Source: Nitrosarchaeum sp. (lineage in GTDB: Archaea; Thermoproteota; Nitrososphaeria; Nitrososphaerales; Nitrosopumilaceae). From it: a stretch of 64,000 nucleotides of DNA. Within the stretch, counting starts at the first letter, position 1. Every line of letters begins with the position of its first letter. Below, one piece after another: positions 16,850 to 30,681 of the stretch. The position numbers and the translations under genes were made by a program. The notes below the pieces were generated by a model. The model made no database searches. It was not told where the DNA came from and was given only the letters and a program-made list of their open reading frames with translations. The stretch spans positions 1,824,001 through 1,888,000 of the forward strand of contig OZ245020.1 in the NCBI GenBank assembly GCA_965223865.1, in the 5' to 3' direction.

Positions 16850-17509
16850 CTAGTCTGTTTTTGTGTGAGAAGCGATTCTCTCTTCACTAGGTCTATGTTT
16901 TCCAGTAACAATGTAATTAATTGCATCAGTCATAAATACGGCATGATCACCTATTCTTTCTAAATATCTTAAAAGTAAAGCTTCAGCGAGTGCACATTTA
17001 GTATCTTTTGATTCAATTAATTTAGGAAGTCTGTCTTTGTAAATTCTATCAATAAAGCGCTCATCTTCTCGTATTTTTGCTGCCTTTCGAACATCTAGTT
17101 CAGCAAACGACATTATTGATTCTCTTATCATATGTTTTACTTTTTTTGAAGATTCAACTAGAGATGCGTTTTTACACTCAGAGATGTCTCCGAACAAATC
17201 TCTAACCAAAGTGATATCATATGCATATCTACCAAATCTTGAAAAAGCGTAAGAGATTTCAGTAGATGAGCGGATAAATCTAAAGTCATCTGCAACAGGT
17301 TGATACTTTAGTAACATATCAAACGTCAAATCTTCAACTTCAAAGTACTTGTTACGTATCGCATCAGATAACTGTAGTACTTTGGCTTTCGTGTTTGTTC
17401 CATCAAGGTAAGAATCAATGGCAAGAGAAACTGATTCTATTACCATATCACCCATCTCAGCCATGATAAATGAGAGTTTTTGTAACGATGGGTCTATTAG
17501 ACGAGTCAT
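16850..17509 (-). CDS. phoU: Phosphate transport regulator PhoU
   Basis: YQPVADDFR and LERIGDHA motifs; downstream of pstB. Confidence 0.9.
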   Translation of the reverse strand: MTRLIDPSLQKLSFIMAEMGDMVIESVSLAIDSYLDGTNTKAKVLQLSDAIRNKYFEVEDLTFDMLLKYQPVADDFRFIRSSTEISYAFSRFGRYAYDITLVRDLFGDISECKNASLVESSKKVKHMIRESIMSFAELDVRKAAKIREDERFIDRIYKDRLPKLIESKDTKCALAEALLLRYLERIGDHAVFMTDAINYIVTGKHRPSEERIASHTKTD

Positions 17510-18349
17510 TTATCCAAATTGACCTTGAACATATTTTGCAGTCAATTCATTTTTTGGATCTGTAAAGAGTTTCTTTGTCTCTCGAAATTCAATCAAATCA
17601 CCAAGGTACATAAATCCAGTATAATCAGACACTCTTACTGCTTGTTGCATGTTATGAGTCACAATGATGATTGTATACTCTTTTTTTAATTCTGTAATTG
17701 TTTCTTCAATTTTTTGAGTAGCTATTGGGTCTAGTGCTGATGCAGGTTCATCCATGAGTAACACTTCAGGTTGAATTGCCAATGCTCTTGCAATGCATAA
17801 TCTTTGTTGCTGACCTCCAGACAATTCTATTGCAGATTTTTTCAGATCCCCCTTCACTTCATCCCAAAGATATGCCATCTTTAGTGAATCCTCTACAATT
17901 TCATCTAGAATTTTTTTATCTCTTACACCGTTTAGTTTTAGACCTGCAGTGACGTTATCATAAATAGACATGGTTGGAAATGGATTTGGTTTTTGAAATA
18001 CCATTCCAACTTTTCTTCTGTGATAAATAGGATCAATAGACTTGTCATAAAGATCAATGTTATCAATCATTACTTTTCCTTCAACTTTGGCATTTTTTGT
18101 CATGTCATGCATTCTGTTTAGGCATCTAAGAAATGTAGTTTTTCCACATCCAGAGGGACCAATTAAAGCAGTAACAGATTTTTCAGGAAATTTCATTGTG
18201 ATGTTTTTAACAGCAGCAATATCACCATAACTTATTGTAACATTTTCTGCGATCATTTTGTATTTTTTTTCTATTTCAGGTGGTGAAGTGGGAGGTTCTG
18301 AAACAGAAGAACTATCCAAAGTGGGAGGATTAATGGTCAACGCTGTCAT
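17510..18349 (-). CDS. pstB: Phosphate ABC transporter ATPase
   Basis: [17 protein letters not shown] and [14 protein letters not shown] motifs. Confidence 0.97.
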
Positions 18350-19272
18350 TTTGTGTTAGACGCTCCTCGTTTAATTAATCGTCCTAATATTCCATTTCCT
18401 TTTCTGCTTGCAAAGTAGTAACGGACTCCAAGATTAATGCCAAGAATTATTATTATCAAAACCAAAGCAGCCCCCCAACCTTGAAGTTGTGCACTATCAT
18501 AAGGCAATAATGACAATCTCCAGATCCTCAGTGGAAGTGCATCCATTGGTACATCCATGCTGCTAAAGAATTGACTGCTTCCAAGAATTGTCATTATTAG
18601 TGGAGCAGTCTCACCACCAATCCTAGAAACTGAAAGTAGTATTCCAGTAATCATACCACTTTTTGCAGCAGAAATCACAATTCTAAGAGTAATGACCCAT
18701 TTTTTGAGACCCAAAGCGGTACCGGCCTCACGATAAGTTACAGGAACCATCTTCAAAGATTCCTCTGTAGTTCTAGCAACAATTGGGAACATAATCAAAG
18801 ATAATGCAAATGCACCTGCCCATACAGAGAAATGGCCCAGTATCAAGACAATCATCAGAAATGCAAAGATGCCCATAACAATTGAAGGAAATTCCATAAA
18901 GACATCGTTAAAGAATCGAATACTCTTTGCTAGTTTATTATCACCATACTCTGAAAGAAAAATTCCAGACATTACTCCTACTGGAACTCCAATAAGACTA
19001 GATAATCCAATGATTATCAGAGTACCTTGAATAGCAGGACCAATACCTCCTTCACCAGAGCCAATTGAACCAGGTACTGCAGTTAAAAATTCGTAATTTA
19101 TAGCTACTGCACCATTTTTGAAAACCTCAACTAAGATACTACCAAGTGGAATAATAGCAATTATCACACATGCAAAAACTACGATTCGCACTGCCTTGTC
19201 AACAACTAGTCGCTTCTCAACATTTTGTTTGAAAAGAGATCTGTATTCCTGTCTTCTTTGTTGTGTAGTCAG
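18346..19272 (-). CDS. pstA: Phosphate ABC transporter permease PstA
   Basis: PSIVMGIF and RIGGETAPL motifs; frame is open up to a CTG overlapping the pstC stop (track start 19191). Confidence 0.93.
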
Positions 19273-20240
19273 TTGTTAATTGCACCTTCCTTTACTTTAA
19301 GCATTCTAGTTACCAGTATGTGAGCTACAACGTTGATTCCAATTGCTATTAAAAGCAGAGTCACAGCTACACCCATCAAAGCTGCTAAATGAAGTTCCGA
19401 CGAGGCATCATTAAACTGATTGGCAATAATACTAGACATTGTTTGAGATGGATGAAATAAAGATGGAGCGATTGCTTTAATTCCAGTAGTATTTCCAATT
19501 AACATTGTAACTGCCATTGTTTCACCAACAGCTCTTCCTAATCCAAGAATTGAAGCTCCTATCAAACCAGTTTTAGAGTATGGAAATACAGCCAGTTTGA
19601 ACATTTCCCATTTTGTTGCTCCAAGCATATATGCTGCTTCTTTTTGTTGTTGAGGAACTGCTTTCATCACTTCACGCGATACAGCCGAAACAGTAGGAAT
19701 AATCATAATTGCTAGAATCACACTAGCGGTAAGAATATCTAATCCAAAAGGGGTTCCTGAAAAAAGCCAAATATTATCTCCAAATGTATTATGTAACGGC
19801 TTTTCAATCCAGTCTACAAAATATACTCTAAAAACAAAAAGTCCCCATAGTCCATAAATTACACTTGGAACCGCGGCTAATAATTCAACAAGAAATCCTA
19901 ATGGACCTCCAATTTTTGCTGGAGCATCAGAAATGAACATTGCAATTCCAATGCTGAGTGGAACACCAATAGCCATAGCTATTGCAGAGGTAGCAAGAGT
20001 TCCAAATACATATGGAAGTGCACCAAAGGCTTCACGACCCTCAACTTCATTCCATTCAGTGCTTGTGATAAAAGACAATCCATTTTCTTCCCATATAGGA
20101 TAAGATTCTGAAATGAGCTGAAATGCCAAAAGAGCAATTATCAATATAACATAAATGCCAGCTACAGTTGCACCAATCTTGAAAATTTTATCTGAAATTG
20201 GTCGTCTTCCAATTTTTGTAGTTAGATTTACTTTTCTCAC
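19269..20240 (-). CDS. pstC: Phosphate ABC transporter permease PstC
   Basis: ELLAAVPSVIYGLWG and GRAVGETMAV motifs. Confidence 0.95.
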   Translation of the reverse strand: MRKVNLTTKIGRRPISDKIFKIGATVAGIYVILIIALLAFQLISESYPIWEENGLSFITSTEWNEVEGREAFGALPYVFGTLATSAIAMAIGVPLSIGIAMFISDAPAKIGGPLGFLVELLAAVPSVIYGLWGLFVFRVYFVDWIEKPLHNTFGDNIWLFSGTPFGLDILTASVILAIMIIPTVSAVSREVMKAVPQQQKEAAYMLGATKWEMFKLAVFPYSKTGLIGASILGLGRAVGETMAVTMLIGNTTGIKAIAPSLFHPSQTMSSIIANQFNDASSELHLAALMGVAVTLLLIAIGINVVAHILVTRMLKVKEGAINN

Positions 20241-20358: not shown

Positions 20359-21402
20359 TTGGAATTAATTGAAAATACTAAACAAACAAGAAAAATGCAA
20401 CTGAGTGGTGGTTCTACATACATTGTTTCATTACCAAAAAACTGGATTGATGATTTAAAGATAAAAGTTGGAGAAAATGTTACCATTGTAAAAAATTCTA
20501 ATCAGTCACTAACATTATACCCAAGAGAAAAAAAGGATCCAAACAAAAAAAGAATTGCAGTAATTCCATTAAGTCAAAAAGACTCAGGAGACTCAATTAA
20601 ACGAAAAATCATTGCAGCTTATCTTGCAGGTTACAAAACAATTAAAATAAAAACAAAAGGAGTGAGAATTCAAGCAGTACAATCTAGAAGCATAAGAGAT
20701 TTGGTTCGCTCAACAATGATAGGTACTGAAATTGTAGAATCAAGTTCGGAAGTTATGGTAATTCAAATTCTTACAAGACTTCCAGAATTATCATTTGTTA
20801 CAGCTCTGAAGAGAATGTATTTGATGGCACATAATATGATTATAGAAGCAATAGAATCTTTAGAAGAAGTAGACATAGATCATGCAGATGAAGTAGTAAA
20901 CATGGATGATGAGGTAGATAGATTTGGTCTCTATATGAGGCGGAATTTGGTATTAGCAATAGAAAATGAGAATATTTTGCAAGATATGCAATTACGAAAA
21001 CCATCTGATTGTCTTGGATATAGAGCAATTGTGACTAGAATTGAAAGGATTGCAGATCATGCACGTCTAATTGCAAAACGAACAAAATTCATTGAAGAAA
21101 AAATTGAAGAAAAAATTCTTATAAAAATAAAAAATCTCTCTGAGAAATCTATCAATGTGTTTGAAAAATCAATTACAGCAGTACAAGAACATGATTTTGA
21201 GAAAGGAGAAAAGGTTGCAGAAGAAGTCAGTCAAATAATTGAAGAAGAAAAACAGATCATGAATAAAATTAAAGAAACTGAAAAAAATATCACCATCATA
21301 AGATTTGTCTTAGAAGATTTGAGAAGAATTGCAGAATATTCAAGCGATATTGCCGAAGTTGCAATTGATGAAAATATTCAAAAAATTATTTCTGAAGAAT
21401 AG
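20359..21402 (+). CDS. Archaeal phosphate uptake regulator (N-terminal AbrB/SpoVT domain plus two PhoU domains)
   Basis: RKMQLSGGSTYIVSLPKNW AbrB motif; ERIADHA and RRIAEY PhoU repeats. Confidence 0.9.
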   Translation: MELIENTKQTRKMQLSGGSTYIVSLPKNWIDDLKIKVGENVTIVKNSNQSLTLYPREKKDPNKKRIAVIPLSQKDSGDSIKRKIIAAYLAGYKTIKIKTKGVRIQAVQSRSIRDLVRSTMIGTEIVESSSEVMVIQILTRLPELSFVTALKRMYLMAHNMIIEAIESLEEVDIDHADEVVNMDDEVDRFGLYMRRNLVLAIENENILQDMQLRKPSDCLGYRAIVTRIERIADHARLIAKRTKFIEEKIEEKILIKIKNLSEKSINVFEKSITAVQEHDFEKGEKVAEEVSQIIEEEKQIMNKIKETEKNITIIRFVLEDLRRIAEYSSDIAEVAIDENIQKIISEE

Positions 21403-21439
21403 ACATTTTTAGTTTTTAAAAAATAAAAAGAAAAAAGAT

Positions 21440-23059
21440 CTACTGTACGTAGAATCCTGGACCCCAATCATCTGTGCTTAGTAGGTCCATACTACTTGAT
21501 GTGTTTGCTTTTTCGTATGAATTAAACATTGCATCATAGACTGGACTATATGGATGATATCCTTGGCATTCAAGATGAAATTCATTTGTCAAGGCAAATC
21601 CTTTAAAGAAACTCTCATCTTTGTCATGCTGGGTTTTTATGACATAGTCAACACTTCTGCAATTTGAATAGTTGAATTCTCGTATAGAATCTTCTCCGTA
21701 TACCAGTTGAACATCTACATCAAACAAGTCAGAAAGTGCATTTACTCCACTCACTTTTTGTCCAAGCTTTTGTGCATCATCAACATGCTTGTACAGTAAT
21801 GGATATTCCCCTGGAACTGCTACAAATTCAATAGTTGGGTAAGACCTATCCAACAAATTTCCTTGTTCAAATATTGGAAAATTAATTGTTTCTTGTCCAT
21901 CACTGAAAGTCAAAGTAGCTACAGCATGAGGACCTTGTCCCATATTGTATGAATTTACCATGTATTCATTTGATACTTTGGTAGTAGACCAAACAGGTGC
22001 ATTTCCTTTAACTTTATCATAGGTTGGATTAAGAGGAGTCATTCCAGCACATGTAAAGTCAACTTTTTCGATTAATGCAAAGCCACGTTTACCAGTGTAT
22101 CCTTCTTCCTTATCTTGATAGGTATCAATGAAAAAGGAAGATACTCTACAATCTGTAAAATCAAGGCCCCGTACCACTTTACCATTATTGGTAAATTCGA
22201 CAAGTGCCTCAAAATCAGTGTTAAAGGTACTTGACAATCCCTTGGTATTTCGTGCCTGGTTTATTGCATTATCCAATAGTGGATGGTTTATCACAGTTCC
22301 TTCTACATGAAAACTAGGACCAGAATCATCTTCTTCTTCAAAACCAGTCGTTAACTCAAAAATTGGAAACTCTATTTTTTCAGTTCCTTCATCAAATTTG
22401 AAAGTTACAAAGGTTCTTGCATCACTGGCAAATTTGAATGGAGTTTGACCATAGTCATATACTATCTGGTTTGTAGTGGAGCGTGGCTCTGATGGAATTT
22501 CATCATTTGACATTACACCACCGCATCTAAAGTCGATGTCATCTACAATTGCAAATCCTACTTTCTCATAGAATCCCCAGCTTTCATAATCATCTTTCAT
22601 TGTCTTAATTTTGTAGTCCAGAACTTCACAGTTGTAATAGTTTACATTACGTATGATTTCAGTATCATTTGAAATAACTACATTTACGTCAAAAAATCTG
22701 TAATCATATTCTAAACTACTTGATCCAGTAGACACCATTAATCTATACTTAAAAGATTCATCTAATGCCTTATGCAAATGAGGAGCCTCTTTTACTACAC
22801 CTTGAACATTAAATGTTGTTCCAACATTTGAAACAAGATCAGAGGTCATCTTAAAGACTGGAAACTCATGTGTTTCAACACCGTCTCTGAATGTGAATGT
22901 CAAAGTTGCACTAACATCATCAGCCATTTTGTATCCGGAATTTTCTTCTGCAAATGCGGAAGGAGCATTCAACAAAATAACAGACATTACTGCAAACAAA
23001 CTTAGAGTAGTCGTTATGGTTGTGTTTTTTGTAATCATTGATCTGTTCAACTGTTTCAT
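21440..23059 (-). CDS. Secreted protein with three ~150-aa internal repeats
   Basis: Signal peptide ending AFA; three copies of TFxFxDGxExxxFPxF...PLL...RxxxYxNCxVxDY...GFA...FxCxG. Confidence 0.85.
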   Translation of the reverse strand: MKQLNRSMITKNTTITTTLSLFAVMSVILLNAPSAFAEENSGYKMADDVSATLTFTFRDGVETHEFPVFKMTSDLVSNVGTTFNVQGVVKEAPHLHKALDESFKYRLMVSTGSSSLEYDYRFFDVNVVISNDTEIIRNVNYYNCEVLDYKIKTMKDDYESWGFYEKVGFAIVDDIDFRCGGVMSNDEIPSEPRSTTNQIVYDYGQTPFKFASDARTFVTFKFDEGTEKIEFPIFELTTGFEEEDDSGPSFHVEGTVINHPLLDNAINQARNTKGLSSTFNTDFEALVEFTNNGKVVRGLDFTDCRVSSFFIDTYQDKEEGYTGKRGFALIEKVDFTCAGMTPLNPTYDKVKGNAPVWSTTKVSNEYMVNSYNMGQGPHAVATLTFSDGQETINFPIFEQGNLLDRSYPTIEFVAVPGEYPLLYKHVDDAQKLGQKVSGVNALSDLFDVDVQLVYGEDSIREFNYSNCRSVDYVIKTQHDKDESFFKGFALTNEFHLECQGYHPYSPVYDAMFNSYEKANTSSSMDLLSTDDWGPGFYVQ

Positions 23060-23120
23060 TACTATAAGATAGATCTTTATTCTCTCCGGATAGAATATGT
23101 TGGTAGATAGTTCTCGTAAG

Positions 23121-23130
23121 GCTATATAGA
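23121..23130. promoter_or_regulatory. GCTATATAGA site upstream of the triple-repeat gene
   Basis: Core CTATATAG palindrome about 62 bp upstream of the start. Confidence 0.5.
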
Positions 23131-23329
23131 AAAAATTGTTATTTTAAAAATCTAAAATAAAAATTTAGAAAAGATCATTATGAGAATAAATCTAATCTAT
23201 ATCCAACACATAGATCTGCATCACTAAAAGCAATGGAAGAACTATCATTGTAAGAGTTTAACAATTGCAAAGATAGAAAATAATTCAAATATTGAAATAA
23301 ATTATTCGGAAAAAATAAAAAGAAAAAAA

Positions 23330-24583
23330 TTAGACTTGGAGAATACCCTGTGAAATAAGATACTGCAATCCGTTGATATAGTCTTGATCAGTTATCAATC
23401 CTTCTGCCCACCATCCTGCATTATCTCGAATCCATTGAGGGATTTCATATTCTGCTGTTTCTACAGCTCCTGAATATTCCCAAAGAACTTCACCATCATA
23501 GGTTACCTTTGACAAGCCTTGTTTTCCAAGTTCTACCACATTATCTGCAAGTGGAACATAAAGTAAACTTGGAGAGAATTCCTGACCATCAGTAATCATC
23601 CAATAAATTATGTGAATTACTGCTTTGGCTTGTTCTTTGTCTTTTGTTACTGATTTTAAGTCATCATACACAAGAAGGTACGTAAAACTAGCGATTGGAT
23701 ATGAATCTGAGCCTGGAGCATTTACAAGAGACACAGAAACCCAGCTTTCTTCTGCTTTAGGAAGGTTATCTCCAACTCCGCTTGAGGCAGCTGAAATGCT
23801 TTCCAAAGTAGGTTCAATGAATGCAGTTCCATCACCGTTTTGAACGTAGGCATAACTCATGCCAGTTTGAAATGCATATGCCAATTCAATATAGCCAATG
23901 GAGTATTCTGTGGATTTTACAATTCCTGCAACACCTTCATTTCCTGCAGCAGCTAATCCCAAAGGCCAAGGAACAGATTTTCCTTTGCCTATCTTTTCAT
24001 CCCATTCAGGACTAATTGCTACTAAATAATCAGTAAAGACAAAAGTAGTTCCAGAGCCATCAGAACGATGTGCAACAACAATCTCTTTGTCAGGAAGATT
24101 CAATTCTGGATTGTGTGCAGTAATTCTAGAATCGTTCCATTTTGTAATCTTTCCTAAAAAGATATCAGCAATTTCATTTCCTGTTAATTTCAATCCTTTG
24201 TTTGGAACTTCTGGTATATTGTATACAACTACAACACCTCCAATAGATTCAGGGATATGAAGTGTACCAGGTGCTGATTCTCTTTCAGATTCACTCATTG
24301 GTTTATCTGAAGCTGCAAAGTTTACGGTTTTTTCAATGTGTTGTTTTACTCCACCGCCACTTCCAATCGATTGATAGTTTAGGTTGACGTTAGAATATTC
24401 TTTGTTGTATTCCACTCTCCATAAATCAATTAGAGGAAATGGAAATGTTGCACCTGCCCCATTCAAATTAAATTCTGAATTTGGATCTGGAAGATCAGGC
24501 ATTGATTCGGCATTTGCACTAATTGGCGGTAGGATTGCAACAAGAGTTGCGATCATCAGTATTGATGTTATCTTTGTTCTCAT
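23330..24583 (-). CDS. pstS: Phosphate-binding protein PstS with thaumarchaeal C-terminal IPxWIxxNAGWW domain
   Basis: GAGATFPFP, YQSIGSGGG, HRSDGSGTT and YPIASFTY motifs. Confidence 0.96.
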   Translation of the reverse strand: MRTKITSILMIATLVAILPPISANAESMPDLPDPNSEFNLNGAGATFPFPLIDLWRVEYNKEYSNVNLNYQSIGSGGGVKQHIEKTVNFAASDKPMSESERESAPGTLHIPESIGGVVVVYNIPEVPNKGLKLTGNEIADIFLGKITKWNDSRITAHNPELNLPDKEIVVAHRSDGSGTTFVFTDYLVAISPEWDEKIGKGKSVPWPLGLAAAGNEGVAGIVKSTEYSIGYIELAYAFQTGMSYAYVQNGDGTAFIEPTLESISAASSGVGDNLPKAEESWVSVSLVNAPGSDSYPIASFTYLLVYDDLKSVTKDKEQAKAVIHIIYWMITDGQEFSPSLLYVPLADNVVELGKQGLSKVTYDGEVLWEYSGAVETAEYEIPQWIRDNAGWWAEGLITDQDYINGLQYLISQGILQV

Positions 24584-29172: not shown

Positions 29173-30681
29173 CTATGAGGGAATTGTCATGATTCCCTCT
29201 TTGATCAAGAATTGTATTCCCTGAACAAAAGAGTTATCATCAATGTCACCATTTGCCCACCAGCCTGCGTTGTTCTTAATCCATGCAGGAATTTCATTAG
29301 AACCAGTACCTTCACCTTGAGCAGTTGGAGGAATTTCCATGATTCCCTCTTTGATCAAGAATTGTATTCCCTGAACAAAAGAGTTATCATCAATGTCACC
29401 ATTTGCCCACCAGCCTGCGTTGTTCTTAATCCATGTAGGGATATTGCTTATTGGTTCTGGAATTTCTTCCGGAGTAGGTTCTGGTGAAACACCTCCTGGA
29501 CCTGGAGATATGGGAACTTCGATTAGTAAATAATCATCTGGTGTTGATGGAACAATTCCCTGTGGTGCTAGACCATATACCCAAACAACATACTTGGCAA
29601 TACCAGGTTCAGATTCCACTGTAAAATCAAGCAAGGATTGCCCTGATGGAGAGTAGATAAATGGTCTTCCTTCATCTTGTGCAAGAGATCTTAATGGTGT
29701 TAAGTTGTCATCTACACGAAAGAAATCATACTGAACTTGATTTAAAAATTCAGTATCATCAAATTTGCTGATAAATTTGATTAGCCAATTCATTTCACAG
29801 CCTTGAGTTGGATTTTCAGGACCGTAAAATGCGTGAATTTGATAGCTAAAGTTTTTTGTTGGTTTTTTTATGCTAACTGTTTTCTCAAAATCTGTTTGAC
29901 AACCCATTGCGGCTGCAGTGTCTGCAGTAGAAACAATTCCTTCAAATGGATTCTGCTGAACATTTTCTCGATATTCTAATAATTCAAATTGATATTCAGG
30001 AGGAGGAATTCCTTCAGAAACATGTGTAAAAGTTGATGCCTTGATAGGAAAAGGAAAGTCATCAACAATCCAAATACTACTTGATTGTCCACCAGTATGC
30101 CATCCAACTATAACTGTATCCCAAGTTCCAGATTCAACTGTGATTGTTTCAAGATCAAGAGGAGCTACTTGCTCGCCACCAATGTTTCCAATCTTACCCC
30201 AAGATTGAGCAGTAAATTCCTTTGGTCCTTTTCCACCAGAACTATCATCAGCGGTTGCAAAAGCTGAAAGCCATGCAACTGAAGATTTGAATGCACCTCT
30301 GTAAAGGCCGAGTTCCTCACTTCCTCCTGTGGGTTCTGGTGCAACTTTACCTAATTCTAATTCTCCAACAACTACTTTGTTACCATCATAAACAACAACT
30401 TCTGCAAGCCATTTTGATTCACTACCTACCTGTTTATCTCCTTTAATCCACAAATCTAATTCAAAATTAGCACATTCCTTATAGTCAACATGACACATTG
30501 AATAACTAAAATAATCTCCTTGTTTGAGACCTTCACCAGCATACCAAGATCCTTCTTTGTCTACCCCTCCAGAGGGGATTTGTGCAGATGCTAATGGTAT
30601 TGAAAATGATCCTAGGACCAAAATTGCAATTAATGATATGGCCATAAATGCTGCCTTCAAATCAACGAAAATTAACGCCAC
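29173..30681 (-). CDS. Secreted protein with two C-terminal IPxWIKNNAGWW domains
   Basis: Signal peptide, Pro-rich linker, duplicated C-terminal thaumarchaeal domain. Confidence 0.88.
   Translation of the reverse strand: MALIFVDLKAAFMAISLIAILVLGSFSIPLASAQIPSGGVDKEGSWYAGEGLKQGDYFSYSMCHVDYKECANFELDLWIKGDKQVGSESKWLAEVVVYDGNKVVVGELELGKVAPEPTGGSEELGLYRGAFKSSVAWLSAFATADDSSGGKGPKEFTAQSWGKIGNIGGEQVAPLDLETITVESGTWDTVIVGWHTGGQSSSIWIVDDFPFPIKASTFTHVSEGIPPPEYQFELLEYRENVQQNPFEGIVSTADTAAAMGCQTDFEKTVSIKKPTKNFSYQIHAFYGPENPTQGCEMNWLIKFISKFDDTEFLNQVQYDFFRVDDNLTPLRSLAQDEGRPFIYSPSGQSLLDFTVESEPGIAKYVVWVYGLAPQGIVPSTPDDYLLIEVPISPGPGGVSPEPTPEEIPEPISNIPTWIKNNAGWWANGDIDDNSFVQGIQFLIKEGIMEIPPTAQGEGTGSNEIPAWIKNNAGWWANGDIDDNSFVQGIQFLIKEGIMTIPS
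29188..29435. repeat. Exact direct repeat of about 97 bp with 150-bp period
   Basis: catgattccctctttgatcaaga...ttcttaatccatg at about 29188-29285 and 29338-29435. Confidence 0.9.

Follow-up and report, generated by a model that had tools for sequence, protein, structure and literature searches.

Proteins of the tube fold are familiar as components of contractile or phage tails, and one of them, Hcp, carries effectors in its lumen. PhoE, OprP and OprO, the phosphate-starvation-inducible anion channels of Gram-negative outer membranes, are membrane beta-barrel trimers. A gene that touches on both subjects lies in a 64,000-nucleotide stretch of the genome of the archaeon Nitrosarchaeum sp. (assembly GCA_965223865.1, contig OZ245020.1, positions 1,824,001 to 1,888,000 of the forward strand; this whole stretch is called the window, and its coordinates are counted from its first letter). 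The longest open reading frame of this tube-fold gene, at 21440..23059 on the minus strand, encodes a three-domain protein of 539 aa, and the gene is situated among the pst genes. The explanation put forward here, to which we give about an even chance, is that the protein is an exported, tethered ring that serves phosphorus uptake upstream of the membrane transporter.

That each of the three domains has the Hcp/tail-tube fold is very likely, judging from predicted structures. The AlphaFold2 (AF2) model of the window protein, built with 39 homologues, has a mean predicted local distance difference test (pLDDT) score of 75.8 and a predicted template modelling (pTM) score of 0.73, and the order of strands and helix is identical in all three repeats. 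Compared with the PDB by Foldseek, the full-length model gives 18 matches at E≤1e-3. The ten best comprise nine components of phage tails or contractile injection systems (T4 gp27-containing complexes, VgrG-like baseplate chains, T5 pb6 and the tail tip) and, at a probability of 0.08, otoferlin. Single-domain tube proteins (6rao_F, 9qgl_5A, 6rap_A, 8fuv_A) are matched at a probability of 1.00 with target template modelling (TM) scores of 0.45-0.57, the overall TM of this search being low because a three-domain query meets single- or double-domain targets.

A single-domain relative, P0160, was modelled from 28 sequences (pLDDT 79, core 90-97) and gives 38 PDB matches at E≤1e-3, with a probability of 1.00 in all 36 rows listed. 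Thirty-four of these 36 are Hcp, type VI secretion system (T6SS), extracellular contractile injection system (eCIS; AFP, PVC, AlgoCIS, Anabaena, Streptomyces) or myophage tube and baseplate proteins; of the two left, one is a Burkholderia protein that is uncharacterised and one a GspE hexamer entry, presumably an Hcp1 fusion construct. Target TM is 0.41-0.69 for the single-domain targets, at 8-17% identity. Among viral models, BFVD yields 94 matches at E≤1e-3, and those with names are tail-tube or tail proteins, including that of an archaeal tailed virus (R4TME6). The ESM Atlas's own model of P0160 stands at TM 0.46-0.53 from the Phage_T4_gp19, TssD and T6SS_HCP clusters; the Atlas feature-based scores of 0.82-0.84 serve as leads only, and PF17642 is seen only among the minority labels of neighbouring clusters. 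The original prediction, made from the letters of the DNA, had proposed this fold from a resemblance to the Hcp consensus: the fold is borne out by Foldseek of the two AF2 models and by the Atlas model, all of them predicted structures, whereas the motif likeness is not, as no Hcp or tube sequence model matches the protein.

The coding sequence probably starts at M8 (ATG at 23038), seven codons 3' of the longest-ORF start at 23059, because BLAST homologues align from query residue 7-10 and because the ATG of M8 is conserved when 16 upstream regions are aligned; the probable real gene is thus 21440-23038 on the minus strand and encodes 532 aa. A putative signal peptide, read from the sequence, covers residues 8-37 (22949..23038, minus strand): it begins MITKN..., with a basic n-region followed by a hydrophobic core of about 20 residues, and ends in ...APSAFA|EE. 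A37 and E39 are at least 90% conserved among the 39 homologues, and residues 6-30 form a low-confidence N-terminal helix in the AF2 model. The protein would thus be exported and its signal peptide cleaved after AFA.

Three segments of about 140 aa follow the signal peptide, and a 34-aa tail ends the protein. Self-BLAST of the whole protein gives the diagonal only, and the repeats emerge solely when segments are compared with one another by BLASTP (29.6% over 142 aa, E 1e-22; 35.5% over 141 aa, E 2.6e-20; 29.0% over 155 aa, E 2.3e-16). All coordinates that follow are on the minus strand. Domain 1 (D1; residues 43-185, 22505..22933), of Hcp/tail-tube-like fold, holds Cys144 and Cys179; domain 2 (D2; residues 205-345, 22025..22447) holds Cys304 and Cys337 and a DKEEGYTGK loop; domain 3 (D3; residues 370-505, 21545..21952) holds Cys467 and Cys498. 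These six cysteines, one pair per repeat, are invariant in the 39-homologue alignment, as are the start of the PLL helix, an Arg three residues before Y-x-x-C, the T-x-x-DKEEG loop and the F-x-C-x-G strand. A signal peptide and three alignable repeats with two conserved cysteines each had been noted from the sequence, and both pairwise BLASTP and the alignment agree with that description. The C-terminal tail (residues 506-539, 21443..21544; ...SSxDL...W..GFY) is modelled as disordered (pLDDT <50); D525, L526, T529, W532 and F536 are conserved in it, and it is probably a docking or anchoring peptide.

Modelling also makes it somewhat probable that two three-domain copies build one six-domain ring. 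The homodimer model of residues 42-515, made with an alignment, reaches an ipSAE interface score of 0.58 (runs 0.58, 0.60 and 0.26) against 0.01 for the best control; at least 60% of contacts are common to the runs, and the pLDDT of the partner is at least 76. Of solved homo-pairs, 20 of 30 reach the tool's pass mark; of proteins solved as single chains, one of 23 does. The predicted interface is reciprocal, with the hairpin and DKEEG-type loop of D1 (146-171) set against 371-404 and 477-491 of D3 in the other copy (D3'). D2 contributes seven residues only (209, 211-212, 318, 321-323), and its nearest contacts are with the D1 loop of the other copy and not with the other D2. Since the D1-D3' contacts are reciprocal and D2 is not paired with D2', the model suggests a closed A1-A2-A3-B1-B2-B3 ring and not a face-to-face stack. 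Such a ring would explain the conservation of the loop and of the short N-terminal extension of each domain. The original prediction had a dimer forming a pseudo-hexamer, and the controlled complex model, with its D1-D3' contacts, is in line with it, as is the series of domain numbers in the family.

This series was counted with a domain hidden Markov model (HMM) of 141 positions run over 265 proteins. Complete proteins have one domain (50 proteins), three domains (118 proteins) or, in one case (P0122, 1016 aa), six; none has two, four or five. P0032 is a second, independent six-domain example, truncated at its N-terminus, and all two-domain matches are truncated fragments. The series of one, three and six fits an assembly with six positions. 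Members of the family share an N-terminal signal peptide or transmembrane anchor, one, three or six domains of about 140 aa and a C-terminal tail or anchor, and the domains are marked by the PLL helix, R-x3-Y-x2-C, the T-x2-DKEEG loop and F-x-C-x-G. The C-terminal tail is found in one-, three- and six-domain members, and other anchors take its place in some. P0013 and P0015 have a low-complexity cytoplasmic stretch, a transmembrane helix and a Pro-rich linker in place of the signal peptide; P0168 has an added C-terminal transmembrane helix; the single-domain proteins P0212 and P0229 end in a 42-aa module common to the PstS of the window. Because of the signal peptide, Cys pairs, transmembrane anchors, Pro-rich linkers and 42-aa module, the tube domains are best placed outside the membrane and tethered to the envelope. 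P0015 (875 aa) was also considered as a fusion of PstS with a tube protein and rejected, its N-terminal part consisting of low-complexity repeats and a transmembrane helix.

In a quick tree, the D1, D2 and D3 of 14 triple-domain proteins cluster by position, which fits one triplication with the three positions kept distinct since. Among the rows labelled single-domain, 34 of 40 fall across a split with 99% support, and three of the other six are fragments of triple-domain proteins. The family comprises 601 homologues at E≤1e-3, with 146 cluster representatives at 50% identity; among the 120 matches listed the source name, where there is one, is always 'hypothetical protein', and the records are from Nitrosopumilus, Nitrosarchaeum and Nitrosopumilaceae. 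When 201 genomes of the class were scanned with the domain profile, the family proved to be present in 70 of the 114 from its own taxonomic family and, weakly (E ~1e-7), in both genomes of the sister family f5; 84 genomes of 12 other families gave no match. Outside the class, a single-domain protein of 237 aa (P0350, profile E 3.8e-40) carries the source label of a Kariarchaeaceae metagenome-assembled genome; this label could be due to mis-binning or to transfer.

Searches by sequence give little to set beside the fold. Pfam has no family for the whole protein at E≤1 and, with single repeats as queries at E≤10, no Hcp/TssD or gp19 tube family; no NCBIfam model matches. PHROGs yield weak matches only (E 0.0055-0.18), to families of unknown function and to no structural protein. 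In sequence-profile searches of the PDB, A1 has two matches at chance level (E 0.65 and 1.3) and A3 none. The A3 profile search for a bridge to Hcp collected 105 proteins, none with a precomputed Pfam domain and, wherever the source names them, all called 'hypothetical protein'. No description of the family was found in the literature searched, and no curated model covers it. Papers that join 'Nitrosopumilus' with 'tail tube' have archaeal viruses as their subject; those that join it with 'Hcp' deal, in the portions available, with nitrogen cycling or microbial community ecology and not with type VI secretion or a tube protein, and 'hcp' in them is taken by us to mean hybrid cluster protein.

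Hcp/TssD (PF05638, PF17642) resembles the window protein in having a domain of about 140-150 aa, the same predicted fold (target TM ≤0.69; 8z7k, 3he1, 4hkh, 9qpe and 7yw0 matched at a probability of 1.00) and, if the dimer model holds, a ring of six domains. The window protein differs in having no HMM match and in its Sec signal peptide, its fusion of three domains, each with a Cys pair, and its C-terminal tail. Hcp has no signal peptide and is both encoded alongside a T6SS (sheath TssBC, gp25-like TssE) and exported by it; the archaeal genome, by contrast, has no sheath or gp25 match, and the genomic partners here are phosphate or phosphonate transporters. The tubes of eCIS and myophages (Afp1/Afp5, Pvc1/Pvc5, AlgoCIS, T4 gp19-like; PF06841) provide the best Foldseek matches (6rap_A, 9qgl, 6rao_F, 6j0n and 6j0b; E 1.5e-5 to 6e-5, probability 1.00), yet there is no sequence match to them, marker searches of the genome detect no sheath or baseplate genes, no tail gene (sheath, baseplate, tape measure, spike) is among the neighbours, and the window protein has a signal peptide and, it would seem, an envelope tether. 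Phage T5 pb6 and T4 gp27/VgrG, with two tube domains in each chain of a trimer, show how fused tube domains reduce the number of chains in a pseudo-hexameric ring, and they are among the top full-length matches (5ngj_A, 1k28_D, 2z6b_D, 7b5h_AJ, 8v3w_H). They differ in arrangement, 2x3 against three domains in two chains here (also 1x6 and 6x1); TM by query is low (0.13-0.19), and a tail context is lacking here.

The genome, which is 99.98% complete, has no match at E≤1 to T6SS_HCP (PF05638), Phage_sheath_1 or Phage_T4_gp19 (PF06841), and its best match to GPW_gp25 is only at E 0.3. The absence of T6SS or phage partners, remarked earlier for the genes next door, thus extends to the whole genome for these four marker families, and we propose that the protein works without contractile machinery. 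It has the fold of the tube and Hcp proteins and probably their ring principle; what differs is the export route, the disulfides, the fusion of one, three or six domains, the archaeal host without an injection system and the neighbourhood of nutrient importers.

This neighbourhood was surveyed in 81 genomes of the archaeon's own family, with PstS scored at E≤1e-20. The tube family is found in 33 of the genomes and PstS in 56, and wherever both occur (20 genomes) a member of the family lies at a distance of 180-2626 nt from pstS. PstS, the regulator of the window locus (described below) or both are present in the fetched flanks of 16 of 31 distinct loci, and a 17th (L028) abuts pstS just past the flank. 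Single- and triple-domain subfamilies are both linked to pst. In three genomes without PstS (G003, G073, G015) the tube gene occupies the same syntenic locus, between genes for an Sbt-type transporter and an ABC-2 exporter, and the genes after it, in the same orientation, encode PhoU_div/DUF47 (E 3.7e-27) and the phosphate transporter PHO4/PiT (E 7.8e-87). In G030 a second copy is found 1.5 kb downstream of phnD (TIGR01098, 139.5 against 112), phnC and phnE (TIGR01097, 241 against 217). The copy in G054 directly precedes an ABC importer, with a binding protein and a fused permease, whose best models are the 2-aminoethylphosphonate proteins PhnS2/PhnU2, far below the cut-off, and whose next-best models are those for molybdate, tungstate and sulfate. 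Kin genomes are not independent, hence no statistic is attached to these counts. The link with pst genes that had been proposed is borne out by this survey and extended to PiT and Phn loci; it is not obligatory.

Taken together, the observations would be accounted for by a protein with three domains of the Hcp/tail-tube fold that is exported by the Sec route, stabilised by disulfides and tethered to the envelope, and two copies of which join D3 to D1', head to tail, in a six-domain ring of two-fold symmetry. The building principle would be that of Hcp hexamers, T5 pb6 trimers and gp27/VgrG trimers, with six chains per ring for the single-domain relatives and one for the six-domain relatives. 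The ring would act as an extracytoplasmic accessory of phosphorus acquisition, placed ahead of the membrane transporter, whichever transporter is present; this independence of transporter type is suggested because members adjoin PstSCAB or PhoU_div with PiT, or are found near phnDCE. In concrete form, it could be a ring in the pseudoperiplasm or surface layer (S-layer) that passes or collects anionic phosphorus compounds. That it serves as a conduit, a role the original prediction had also favoured for times of phosphate starvation, is a possibility we hold to be unlikely.

The S-layer of N. maritimus has pores of about 5 Å that are lined by acidic residues and act as cation channels, and each of its hexamers has a two-fold symmetric central pore (PMC11153153). 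The words 'anion' and 'phosphate' are absent from the main text of that paper, which in this text does not address how anionic nutrients cross the S-layer; the tube family offers a concrete, testable candidate. At its boldest, and only as a doubtful conjecture, the proposal is that a viral tail-tube/Hcp domain has been turned into a stand-alone, Sec-exported ring (1x6, 3x2, 6x1) that would lie in or below the strongly anionic, cation-sieving S-layer and offer phosphate and phosphonate anions a path to any membrane transporter present, an archaeal counterpart of PhoE/OprP. The comparison with PhoE, OprP and OprO would be one of function only, namely extra-membrane phosphate passage tied to Pst, the fold being unrelated. 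If true, an exported, disulfide-bonded and tethered tube protein without injection machinery would be a new use of the fold, and, as ammonia-oxidizing archaea are globally abundant, a lineage-specific component of phosphorus acquisition would matter for marine and sediment ecology.

Several results weigh against this explanation. The link with phosphorus is strong but positional, and across the 81 genomes there is no co-occurrence of the tube family and PstS: besides the 20 genomes with both, 13 have the tube family only, 36 (among them G077, flagged as unpublished) PstS only and 12 neither, so that 13 of 33 family-bearing genomes lack a PstS match and 36 of 56 PstS genomes lack a family member. 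Other copies stand beside PKD/GT2, TFIIB, hydantoinase and agmatine deiminase genes, the second copy in the genome of the window sits among biotin genes, and the upstream regions of pstS and pstC contain no site in a scan with the position weight matrix (PWM) of the tube-gene promoter. With a pI of 4.5 and a net charge of -39, the mature protein is strongly acidic and not obviously suited to an anion path; PstS is similarly acidic (pI 4.4). As to structure, the Foldseek E-values are only 1e-5 to 2e-3, at the low identities given above, and one of the three homodimer runs reaches only 0.26. Hcp rings are abundant among solved structures, and the homodimer may have passed because the predictor remembers them, its score then echoing the likeness to Hcp. 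A link to Hcp or tube families at the level of sequence is absent in Pfam, NCBIfam, PHROGs and PDB profiles, and, since all of these libraries are negative, common ancestry with these proteins would have to be argued from the predicted fold.

Part of this evidence would suit a tube-fold structural protein of the envelope or S-layer that has no direct part in the uptake of phosphorus and whose adjacency to pst and pit genes is an old, inert gene order in one archaeal family. Such a protein would not be expected to follow PstS from genome to genome (13 family-only and 36 PstS-only genomes), could have paralogs in biotin and other contexts and need not have promoter motifs in common with pst genes, and its locus would remain unchanged where pst is absent, as it does, in the manner of a neutral resident. 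We nevertheless judge this account unlikely. Where pst is missing at the same locus it is PiT and PhoU_div that replace it and not unrelated genes, paralogs elsewhere lie near phnDCE and a PhnS2/U2-like importer, and the single- and triple-domain subfamilies, divided by a strongly supported split, are both linked to pst. That members of both subfamilies, at more than one locus, stand next to three different phosphorus importers is not easily explained by inert gene order. The constant nearness of pstS (20 of 20 genomes having both) could also mean that the ring is a dock or chaperone that holds extracellular solute-binding proteins such as PstS and PhnD in the pseudoperiplasm, as Hcp binds effectors; the binding-protein genes of two other ABC importers adjoin members too, the 42-aa C-terminal module is common to PstS and some family members, and effector carriage in the lumen of Hcp would be a precedent by analogy. 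At three PiT-linked loci, however, there is no binding-protein gene next door, and because the family accompanies PiT as well as binding-protein-dependent importers its role would go beyond docking PstS, which makes this alternative quite improbable.

Two further accounts concern the nature of the domain itself. The tube-fold call might be an artefact of modelling, the true domain being a beta-sandwich with a helix that is unrelated to the tube proteins: Foldseek E-values are modest (best 1.5e-5), the root-mean-square deviation is often 5-10 Å, and the full-length search also lists otoferlin, rotavirus VP5*, TbpB and PilZ proteins at low probability. Two AF2 models and an independent ESM model nevertheless converge on the same families, the probability is 1.00 in all 36 listed single-domain PDB rows, and three repeats have the same secondary-structure order, so that an artefact appears very improbable. 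A protein whose fold matches phage tail-tube proteins, including the archaeal tailed virus entry R4TME6, could also be a remnant or a decoy derived from a tailed virus or a contractile injection system, for instance a provirus tube gene or an anti-viral decoy. This account can barely be reconciled with a signal peptide and Cys pairs, with 601 homologues strongly conserved across genera at a fixed chromosomal locus, and with a genome in which sheath, baseplate or tube Pfam families are not detected and PHROGs without a structural match to the protein.

The tube-fold gene is positioned as had been described, between pstS and a regulator, with the rest of the pst genes beyond. On its upstream side is pstS (23330..24583, minus strand; PBP_like_2 E 4e-38; TIGR00975 352.9 bits against a cut-off of 205), which ends in the 42-aa C-terminal module (23333-23458, minus strand; no Pfam match). 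The stop codon of pstS is followed by a T-run, and the tube-fold gene is preceded by TATA elements of its own. On its other side, and convergent with it, is a regulator with an AbrB/MazE-type DNA-binding domain and a PhoU domain (20359..21402, plus strand); regulators of this type adjoin a tube-family gene in 15 of 31 distinct loci. Then follow, all on the minus strand, pstC (19269-20240), pstA (18346-19191) and pstB (17510-18349), the latter two named by sequence and gene order, and phoU (16850-17509). An ABC-2 exporter is also among the neighbours in the window. The 42-aa module (IPQWIRDNAGWWAEGLITDQDYINGLQYLISQGIL...) is matched 43 times in the genome, in many cases by tandem pairs at the C-terminus of a protein, one further occurrence in the window being at 29185-29445; it probably serves these archaea quite generally as an envelope anchor.

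Upstream of the tube-fold gene, an alignment of 16 upstream loci, both Pst- and PiT-linked, delimits a conserved promoter region (23062..23131, minus strand). It consists of a distal TATA element, TTCTATATAG (23122-23131), a motif TTACGAGAACTATCTACC (23101-23121), a palindromic motif, ATrTTCTATC-N3-AGAGAAT (23076-23100), and a proximal TATA-like CTTATAG (23062-23068), all on the minus strand, and this order is kept across genera, at Pst- and PiT-linked loci alike. The roles of these elements are putative; the spacing of about 27 nt between CTTATAG and the M8 ATG would be compatible with a leaderless transcript. In a PWM scan the tube-gene promoter motifs have their sole occurrence in the window upstream of this gene. 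The genome holds a single other strong palindrome site (C1:852248-852267), before an uncharacterised secreted protein of 142 aa (C1:852307-852735).

For the candidate of a shared Pho box, ATAGTTCT, 6 matches stand against 3.03 expected, and at least 6 are reached in 7 of 100 shuffles, which is not significant. TTCTATATAG was likewise considered as a Pho box and set aside, as it is present at many promoters and resembles a general TATA element. With at most one mismatch it occurs 17 times in the window against 6.2 expected, a number reached in 0 of 100 shuffles, and its sites are spread over the window (for example 8386, 13789, 20303, 23122 and 24657). It is likely the organism's strong TATA/BRE consensus.

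The second copy in this genome (C1:1404653-1406251) is 99.8% identical in DNA to the window copy over 1544 nt (window 21414-22957 against L003 8738-10281), and its signal peptide and promoter differ. Because the identity is confined to the mature part, it points to recent gene conversion between the two copies. The paralog lies between bioD/bioA and a secreted beta-propeller gene, followed by bioB/bioF, and in its upstream region it is similar to the G030 copy near phnDCE. Genes for a DsbA-like thioredoxin, a DsbD-type membrane protein and a thioredoxin-like protein (L003 3492-4277 and 14032-15871) are found within 6 kb of the paralog; they may be relevant to the Cys pairs or may be there by coincidence.

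At the PiT-linked loci (L036 9004-10563 in G003, also L011 and L041), a secreted protein of 519 aa with an NHL beta-propeller, HYR and RTX repeats is encoded just upstream of the tube gene, and it has a faint, sub-threshold 'Phytase-like' Pfam match (E 8.5e-5). At three other places (G062:C132, G070:C88 and G026:C14), two or three single-domain genes of the family flank or follow pstS in tandem, an arrangement that would allow hetero-oligomeric rings.

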